A stretch of DNA of 64,000 bases, taken from positions 7,409 to 71,408 of the forward strand of contig JAGORL010000004.1 of NCBI GenBank assembly GCA_018062825.1, written 5' to 3'. The stretch comes from Patescibacteria group bacterium (GTDB taxonomy: Bacteria > Patescibacteriota > Patescibacteriia > UBA9934). The notes under the pieces are model-generated. The model was given only the letters and a program-made list of their open reading frames with translations. It ran no database searches and was not told where the DNA came from. This document shows positions 51,355 to 51,499 of the stretch, in pieces. The translations under genes were made by a program, and so were the position numbers. Numbering within the stretch: position 1 is the stretch's first letter; the number at the start of each line of letters is the position of its first letter.

Positions 51355-51383
51355 TTGACAAAATCACTTTTTTCTGCTAATGT
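51355..51383 (+). promoter_or_regulatory. promoter module E: TTGACA-N17-TAATGT with spacer AAATCACTTTTTTCTGC, then a CCCC/GGGG hairpin in the 5'UTR
   Basis: ttgacaaaatcacttttttctgctaatgttcgtggtacaaaccgtccccacaaggggcggaagcac... then GGAGGAACC-ATG at 51500. Confidence 0.5.
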
Positions 51384-51499
51384 TCGTGGTACAAACCGTC
51401 CCCACAAGGGGCGGAAGCACATTGTCAGTGCCAGTTAGATTACGTGTTCAGTTCCAAACCTGTTACGAGGTGCGATCGATCGCAACCACTGGAGGAACC

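Follow-up and report, generated by a model that had tools for sequence, protein, structure and literature searches.

Probable extended -10 promoters and putative leader stem-loops at GC-rich single-gene units of a Patescibacteria chromosome

Why do unrelated GC-rich genes of one genome have nearly the same promoter, and does the GC hairpin that follows two of these promoters belong to the same element? The question is raised by the leaders of gene E (plus strand) and gene B (minus strand) in a 64-kb stretch of DNA, referred to here as the window. A sequence-only reading had grouped these leaders with those of other GC-rich genes into one family of four full modules. In that reading, the T-run/TGCTAAT core of the family could be the binding site of a dedicated regulator or sigma factor. 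The leader sequences that it quoted are all present where it had placed them.

The window belongs to a Patescibacteria (CPR) chromosome and not to a phage. Pfam identifies the cellular genes ThrRS, PheS, PheT, RseP, GlmM, HtpX, LemA, a Clp ATPase (ClpB), RadA, RecG, Sua5, ZnuABC with Fur, and KsgA. DnaE and a type IV secretion pilin are also encoded, and the window proteins are annotated at NCBI as Patescibacteria group bacterium (locus tags KBC55_04095 onward). A phage origin was first suggested by a PHROG 'terminase' match, a DnaE-type polymerase and a 3001-aa ORF. It was dropped on account of the Pfam housekeeping genes and the Patescibacteria protein names, and the 'terminase' proved to be a VirB4/TrsE-like ATPase. 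A search of INPHARED and IMG/VR gave no match to the window. Since the window is chromosomal, the idea that the GC-rich genes are phage morons was abandoned. Across the whole window, the Rfam gathering score was reached by three tRNAs only. The idea that DnaA boxes are involved was also examined; TTWTNCACA shows no overall enrichment (5 found vs 4.95 expected).

The GC content of the backbone is about 48%, and genes A (59%), B (62.5%), C (61%), D (57%) and E (about 65%) are outliers. Strong terminator hairpins lie directly 3' of the stop codon in A, B, C and E. With a promoter and a terminator of its own, each of these four genes is a stand-alone promoter-leader-ORF-terminator unit among housekeeping genes. 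Gene E (51500-52246, plus strand) is a GC-rich lipoprotein ORFan with a signal peptide and the lipobox LMGC, and 92% of its 4-fold sites are G/C. The Shine-Dalgarno sequence GGAGG (51491-51495) precedes its ATG (51500), and an intrinsic terminator, a hairpin with U5, follows the gene on the same strand (52266-52302). This terminator is kept in L001 and L126 (related genomes are denoted here by L and a number). Gene B (4681-3923, minus strand) is an ORFan without a family. It has GGAGG at 4690-4686, a TTG start at 4681-4679 and an intrinsic terminator at 3905-3879, all on the minus strand.

According to Pfam, gene C encodes an NT5C nucleotidase and gene D an M23 peptidase, and there is no family match for the A, B and E proteins. 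The A, B and E translations are mutually unrelated. Among 5.8 billion proteins, the relatives of E and B are close ones in sister genomes only, and among 1.8 billion representative proteins, nothing beyond close relatives and no donor homologue was found for B. No phage matches were obtained for B, and those of C are only about 30% identical. It is from composition that a foreign origin of B and E may be inferred. The structure prediction for E (pLDDT 34.5) was unusable.

The promoter of gene E (51355-51383, plus strand) begins with the -35 hexamer TTGACA (51355-51360). Its 17-nt spacer, AAATCACTTTTTTCTGC, contains a T6 run (51368-51373) and a TG (51375-51376), and the -10 hexamer TAATGT (51378-51383) is followed by TCG. 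The promoter of gene B (4748-4720, minus strand) has TTGACA at 4748-4743, a 17-nt spacer, AAATTGCATTTTTTTGC, with a T7 run and a TG at 4728-4727, and the -10 hexamer TATTGT at 4725-4720, again followed by TCG. Gene A has a promoter of the same family, TTGACAAAAACGCTTTTTTCTGCTAATAT (2346-2318, minus strand), with TAATAT as its -10; it is kept in L125. TTGACA is matched 6/6 and the spacer is 17 nt in all three, and a TG lies one base 5' of the -10 hexamer, giving TGC-TAATGT in E, TGC-TATTGT in B and TGC-TAATAT in A. A promoter scan marks this TG before the -10 in A and B. Gene C has an extended -10, TGCTAATAT (13861-13869, plus strand), identical in L127, but it lacks a TTGACA -35. Three of the four proposed full modules (A, B and E) are thus complete. 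A and C have TGCTAATATCnGCCAA in common (15/16).

Local alignment paired E with B at 29/34 positions (34 nt, 85%), E with A at 26/28 (28 nt, 93%) and B with A at 22/26 (26 nt, 85%), and 0/500 shuffles reached any of the scores. A weight matrix derived from 108 unrelated promoters of this form was scored over the 64-kb window. The promoters of A, E and B scored 40.0, 33.6 and 29.0, respectively; the next best site scored 10.0 and the shuffle maximum was 9.9. The 64 kb contain just three such full promoter sites, each before a GC-rich gene. Alignments that no shuffle equals and matrix scores far above the shuffle maximum bear out the claim that the A, B and E promoters are one non-random family. 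The hallmark of what had been called 'subtype 2', a TAWTGT-TCG(Y) -10/discriminator, occurs in five independent promoters in the lineage, and the A4...T5-7 spacer and the C after TG are invariant there. At the free spacer positions, B and E are no more alike than expected by chance, and orthologues differ as well. Since these positions vary even in orthologues, the family likeness appears to sit in the positions that are read by RNA polymerase.

The metagenome pattern that we searched, TTGACAAAA-N5-TTTTT-N-TGCTAWT, has 20 specified bases. It was found in at least 120 unrelated metagenome contigs from gut, groundwater, sediment and sludge, and the pattern-bearing contigs among the matches listed have a GC content of 21 to 64%. 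In the 108 unrelated sites, the free spacer positions carry no information. The sixth -10 position, which the pattern leaves unconstrained, is still T (1.5 bits), so the pattern sites are genuine -10 hexamers and hence promoters. On several contigs from other bacteria, the pattern is found 10 nt 5' of RNase P RNA or about 40 nt 5' of tRNA genes, which suggests that this form of promoter is a strong one of the housekeeping type. In Ca. Uhrbacteria RIFOXYB2_FULL_45_11 (CPR), the sequence TTGACAAAATCGCATTTTTTTGCTAATGTTCGCCG is 33/35 identical to module B. It comes after uvrA, precedes a gene of native GC content and has no hairpin.

Judged from its letters, TGC-TAAT(G/A)T is a -10 extended by TGn. 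With a perfect TTGACA at a distance of 17 nt, it has the hallmarks of promoters of the primary sigma-70 family. The T-run/TGCTAAT core is best read as the part of the spacer and -10 that sigma contacts (TGn and the hexamer), with no separate operator. The proposal that it is the site of a dedicated regulator or sigma factor was not upheld, given this promoter form and its occurrence in so many unrelated contigs, before stable-RNA genes and in Uhrbacteria. Such a factor is not supported by these data and is unnecessary to explain the core; a further regulatory layer is a minority possibility. Within the window, the YGCTAATNT flavour of -10 is confined to intergenic regions beside GC-rich genes, which is unexpected from a purely generic promoter. 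The common GCTAAT -10 is compatible both with the reuse of a native promoter when the ORFs were domesticated and with selection for the same optimum.

As had been observed, the B and E leaders have in common TGTTCG and a 5'-proximal GC hairpin. The E hairpin, CCGUCCC-CACAA-GGGGCGG (51396-51414, plus strand), has a predicted energy of -12.7 kcal/mol (z -3.0), and the B hairpin, UGCCCC-GUGAU-GGGGCA (4709-4693, minus strand), one of -11.5 kcal/mol. They begin about 6 nt (E) and 4 nt (B) after the start predicted from the -10 spacing, and their distances from the -10 are 13 nt and 10 nt. Equal stability is found in 0.8-2% of all 31-nt windows of the sequence and in 1.5-4% of GC-matched windows; the z-scores of the full leaders against shuffles are modest (-1.6 and -1.7). 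Because of a U.G pair, complete pairing of the E stem is possible only in RNA of the sense strand. As DNA, the B hairpin is a perfect palindrome of 17 bp, located at about +4 to +20 relative to the predicted start. The rest of the E 5' UTR (51415-51499, plus strand), with about 75 nt after the main hairpin, contains a second small hairpin at 51417-51431.

The hairpin is absent from an E-family paralogue in L126, from the Uhrbacteria promoter and from A and C, where the leaders fold weakly or not at all; that of A is short and unstructured. Its absence there indicates that it is not required for promoter function, and it would be an optional add-on that is only loosely part of the module. Unrelated promoters of this type show a modest excess of 5' stem-loops downstream (GC-adjusted -1.3 kcal/mol, p 5e-4).

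Several known roles for such hairpins were considered and rejected. A riboswitch or known leader RNA was ruled out by the lack of an Rfam match; for the E leader, Rfam gave nothing better than E = 1.3. A terminator or attenuator would have a U-tract, and here AAGCAC follows the E hairpin and AAAGGAGG follows the B hairpin. Neither hairpin was listed by a scan for terminator-like sites. The stem and 5-nt loop of a lambdoid nut site are present, but on direct reading neither leader has a boxA (CGCTCTTA-like), and a nut site is also disfavoured by the replicon not being a phage.

Positions 1-13,700 of the window have a syntenic counterpart in L125 (Logan, 13.5 kb). As proteins, the L125 ThrRS and DnaE are 94-95% identical to those of the window, yet only 43-50% of the 4-fold sites agree, which means that neutral sites are saturated. 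The GC-rich genes A and B lie at the same loci in L125 with the same promoters. In the B promoter, the N5 of the spacer is TTGCA in L125 vs GTCAA in the window, and the -10 is TATCGT. The block from ACGAG through the hairpin and GGAGG to TTGAAT is 41/41 identical (P ~1e-12 at 51% neutral identity), and protein B is only 47% identical. L110 (3.2 kb) spans D and E. From the -35 to the end of the hairpin, its E leader is 57/60 identical vs 73% at E 4-fold sites (P 1e-5). The E promoter is 28/29 identical in L110 and fully identical in L001. The stem of the E hairpin is unchanged in L110; both changes fall in the loop (CACAA to UCAAA) and add a U-A pair. Downstream of the hairpin, the L110 leader is rearranged and shortened, with a 30-nt indel.

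L001 and L124 are near-identical to the window and hence uninformative; the B promoter is kept in L124. The L001 copy of E has an identical leader and N-terminal half and a swapped C-terminal half. The E-family paralogue of L126 has a subtype-2 promoter, TTGACAAAAACAATATTTTTTTGCTAATGTTCGCA, and a 30-nt leader, and it sits right after a remnant of the E C-terminal domain and a terminator. Identity at 4-fold sites is 0.73 for E vs 0.45 for its neighbour D, which is partly an effect of composition.

These elements are nearly unchanged where synonymous sites are saturated, which argues that the promoters and hairpins are functional, and by this measure both are evidently under purifying selection. 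Among three E-type leaders, two of them distinct, and three of the B type, of which two are identical, neither stem has compensatory or covarying substitutions, and an RNA structure is consistent with the data rather than proven by them. The claim of a conserved CCCC/GGGG leader hairpin therefore holds in one sense: each hairpin is retained at the homologous loci of relatives (E in L110, B in L125). It does not hold as a homologous element shared by B and E. CCCC/GGGG(C) is common to the two, but the other stem bases, the loops and the positions differ.

One alternative is that the GC-rich genes are a small regulon under a lineage-specific DNA-binding protein or a specialised sigma factor. Its sites would be the -10-overlapping GCTAAT(A/G)T(T/C)nGC and/or the inverted repeats past the start (TGCCCC-N5-GGGGCA), acting as an operator that silences or times the expression of foreign genes. 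The near-palindrome GCTAATATTAGC (at most 2 mismatches) indeed has 10 sites vs 2.2 expected, a number that 0/100 shuffles reach. These sites lie at A, at C, twice upstream of B and between D and E, and are kept in L001, L110 and L125. Three operator-like repeats centred on AATATT are located upstream of B, the B palindrome is invariant in sequence, including the loop and flank, at saturated divergence, and the confinement of the YGCTAATNT flavour to the neighbourhood of GC-rich genes would also fit. However, the B and E promoters match the near-palindrome poorly (GCTATTGTTCGC, GCTAATGTTCGT), and the palindrome at 51179 falls within a small conserved ORF. The inverted repeats of B and E are unlike in sequence and spacing. 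That of E is imperfect as DNA (T.G), and in L110 one C of its CCCC is lost with the RNA still paired. By Pfam of the window genes, no HTH or sigma gene adjoins any module, Pfam is empty for A and B, and the sole regulator seen in the window is Fur at 39.8 kb. The -35, spacing, TG and -10 are all as in the consensus for the primary sigma, and in other bacteria the pattern serves as the promoter of stable-RNA genes. We consider dedicated regulation of this kind unlikely. It is slightly less likely still that the GC-rich orphan set, including the hypervariable lipoprotein family, is under dedicated control through a GCTAAT...GC operator plus invariant leader elements at +4 to +20. If true, a minimal-genome episymbiont would in effect have a small 'xenogeneic gene' regulon or expression cassette.

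Similarity by descent is a different possibility. The modules would be copies of one ancestral promoter-leader, spread either as 'putative mobile promoters' or as a cassette of promoter, ORF and terminator exchanged by recombination among related CPR genomes. Similar promoters do stand upstream of non-homologous genes, the same -10 flavour is found in all GC-rich units, and A and C match over the 15/16 stretch given above. The tandem cassettes of L126, the swapped C-terminal half of E in L001 and the lower divergence of E than of D at 4-fold sites could be read in the same way. Against this, the similarity ends after 26-34 nt, with no homology upstream of the -35 or past TCG, and it is at chance level in the unconstrained spacer positions of B and E. 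Around the units there are no repeats, no integrase or transposase and no att-like sites, and since A and B occupy the same loci in L125, they have not moved recently. Propagation is in our view improbable. Another possibility concerns the hairpins, which could be incidental products of chance folding where an AT-rich promoter meets a GC-rich gene, with only the promoter and the ribosome site being functional. The modest z-scores of the full leaders would fit this, as would the differences between B and E, the absence of a hairpin from A, C, L126 and Uhrbacteria and the lack of covariation. But few GC-matched windows are this stable, and both hairpins are kept in diverged relatives in which neutral sites are saturated and the adjacent E leader and B coding sequence have changed heavily. 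Of the explanations considered, we regard chance folding as the least probable.

The explanation that we prefer, with a probability of roughly 0.6, is that strong constitutive primary-sigma promoters, together with a 5' stabilising stem-loop, serve autonomous GC-rich units. The GC-rich single-gene insertions A, B, C and E would each be wired as an autonomous transcription unit. A near-consensus promoter, in which an A/T-tract spacer of 17 nt separates TTGACA from a TG-extended -10, TAWT(G/A)T, would be read by the cell's primary sigma-70-family RNA polymerase. Downstream of it would come a short 5' UTR, with GGAGG as the canonical ribosome site, then the ORF and finally a strong intrinsic terminator. 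The B and E transcripts are predicted to start 4-6 nt before a stem-loop of 6-7 bp rich in GC. Most likely, this 5'-terminal stem-loop and the strong ribosome site would protect the mRNA from 5'-end-dependent decay. The stem-loop may also keep the ribosome site free of pairing with the GC-rich coding region.

Action at the RNA level is favoured by the closeness of the stem-loop to the predicted start, by the strong ribosome site downstream of it and by the U.G pair in E. It is also favoured by the C-to-U change in L110, which keeps or extends pairing, and by the modest enrichment of 5' structure after unrelated promoters. At about 6 nt from the predicted 5' end, the E hairpin may be too far for full protection. 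That the B hairpin is invariant even in the loop and the 5' flank points to recognition of its sequence and not of structure alone; a sequence-specific protein acting on the DNA or RNA of the B hairpin is possible.

To our knowledge, the promoters and 5' UTR elements of Patescibacteria/CPR are essentially uncharacterised, as these organisms are uncultured. The loci described here provide clean, conserved examples of what is probably a strong CPR promoter, along with a ribosome site, a leader hairpin and a terminator. They can be used for annotation, for interpreting metatranscriptomes and for building expression tools. For genome evolution, it is mildly interesting that foreign-looking GC-rich orphans in a streamlined genome have native-style, near-optimal signals. 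The arrangement is ordinary, even textbook, in mechanism; the organism and the GC-rich orphan genes are what is unusual.

Among known systems, the promoters are closest to the extended -10 (TGn) promoters of primary sigma-70/sigma-A, which include the E. coli TGnTATAAT class and the '-16 region' TRTG of Gram-positive bacteria. Like these, A, B and E have a perfect TTGACA, 17-nt spacing and a TG one base upstream of TAnnnT; the key bases A(-11) and T(-7) are present, the spacer is A/T-rich and a T-tract lies upstream. They differ in the -10 itself, which is TAATGT, TATTGT or TAATAT rather than TATAAT. The units as a whole resemble phage morons and single-gene genomic islets, which are promoter-gene-terminator units of atypical composition. 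They too are autonomous, with a promoter, an ORF and a terminator, and their composition is unlike that of the surrounding genome. In contrast to morons, they are hosted by a bacterial chromosome, with ThrRS, DnaE and PheST as neighbours. They are also GC-richer than the backbone, and their promoters look native rather than imported.

The definition of putative mobile promoters (Matus-Garcia et al. 2012, PMC3488235) calls for an aligned stretch of 50 nt or more, located upstream of the start codon, with an identity of no less than 80%. The likeness to them is that near-same promoters precede non-homologous genes, some of them probably horizontally acquired, in one genome. Here, the alignable stretch is shorter than that length, at 26-34 nt, and is confined to the positions contacted by polymerase. 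A 5' stem-loop combined with ribosome binding stabilises mRNA in the B. subtilis aprE leader and in E. coli ompA, and E. coli papA likewise has a stabilising 5' hairpin (reviewed in PMC3997798). The leaders of B and E differ from these stabilisers in that the sequence of the B hairpin, and not just its structure, is invariant, the E hairpin may be separated from the 5' end by about 6 nt and the role proposed here is putative. They are like them in having a stable GC stem-loop near the predicted 5' end, a strong GGAGG downstream of it and conservation in orthologous leaders.

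The window is a piece of a Patescibacteria (CPR) chromosome (1-64000), with locus tags from KBC55_04095 onward. A phage replicon was considered and rejected. The gene at 41469-43430 that matched a PHROG "terminase" codes for a VirB4/TrsE-like product. This gene belongs to a type IV secretion-like cluster, whose members also include a T4SS pilin/C39 peptidase (28175-29275) and the M23 peptidase of gene D (49253-50884, minus strand).

The genome has a GC content of 48%, compared to 57-65% in five genes: A (1712-2293, minus strand), B (3923-4681, minus strand), C (13900-14502, plus strand), D, and E (51500-52246, plus strand). 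In gene E, 92% of the 4-fold sites are G or C. Four of the five (A, B, C, and E) form monocistronic units, in which every gene has a promoter and a terminator of its own. For B and E, no homologues outside the sister genomes were found among billions of proteins. In a relative with saturated synonymous sites, genes A and B still occupy the same positions and, therefore, their high GC content is maintained, not ameliorated.

Gene E is a member of a fast-evolving lipoprotein family, represented by E itself and by sequences in two related metagenome contigs, L001 (362-1090) and L126 (119-1142). Compared to E, the L001 gene has a nucleotide-identical leader and N-terminal half, while the C-terminal half is replaced, giving 66% amino acid identity overall. 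L126 carries a 57-aa remnant of the window-type E C-terminus with the terminator. Behind these stands a second paralogue, which is diverged and has a separate promoter. The family in these contigs is one of tandem cassettes and mosaic recombination. Between D and E lies a small ORF of 53 aa (51101-51262, plus strand; MNKKILIPEYKK...LCALCV). L001 conserves its protein sequence, and L110, the related contig covering D and E, does not. One GCTAA(G/T)ATTAGC palindrome falls inside this ORF. A perfect 12-nt palindrome, GCGATCGATCGC, was seen in the E leader at 51473-51484, within the part of the leader missing from L110.

Two kinds of short site occur around these promoters. DnaA-box-like TTWTNCACA sites are not enriched across the window overall; three of the five matches (4800-4808, 51341-51349, and 51254-51262) lie within the intergenic regions upstream of B and E. 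A perfect site, TTATCCACA, is found upstream of B and is conserved in L125, the contig syntenic with window 1-13,700, and TTTTCCACA, which immediately precedes the E -35, is conserved in L001 and L110. The other is a near-palindrome, GCnAATATTnGC, that overlaps -10-like boxes. With up to two mismatches, GCTAATATTAGC was observed at 10 sites in the window compared to 2.2 expected. Three copies are upstream of B (4758-4769, 4789-4800, and 4815-4826), spaced 31 and 26 bp apart. Of these, two are conserved in L125, as is a 37-nt block. Other copies are at 2314-2325, 13862-13873, and 51179-51190. The near-palindromes may be operators or, alternatively, tandem weak promoters.

Elsewhere in the window, TGCTATAAT (2355-2375, plus strand) is only 10 nt ahead of the ATG at 2373, and TGCTAAAAT (25440-25468, plus strand) is 6 nt ahead of the ATG at 25466. 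Neither ATG is preceded by a Shine-Dalgarno sequence. These native genes probably have leaderless mRNAs and differ in this from the GC-rich genes, which bear GGAGG. At 8918-8978, two near-consensus promoters stand back to back. The minus-strand one, TTGACA-16-TATAGT, points towards ThrRS; the plus-strand one is TTGACAAAA...TGTGATATGAT. Since no annotated gene lies downstream of the latter, its transcript may be a small RNA or an antisense RNA.

The promoter of gene B (module B) has a counterpart in another CPR bacterium, Ca. Uhrbacteria RIFOXYB2_FULL_45_11 (L123 3445-3476; also L003 and L122), that is identical at 33 of 35 positions. It is located downstream of uvrA, and the gene that it precedes, at the end of a leader of ~120 nt, codes for a secreted protein and has a normal GC content. 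The match suggests that exactly this type of promoter is a Patescibacteria-wide optimum.
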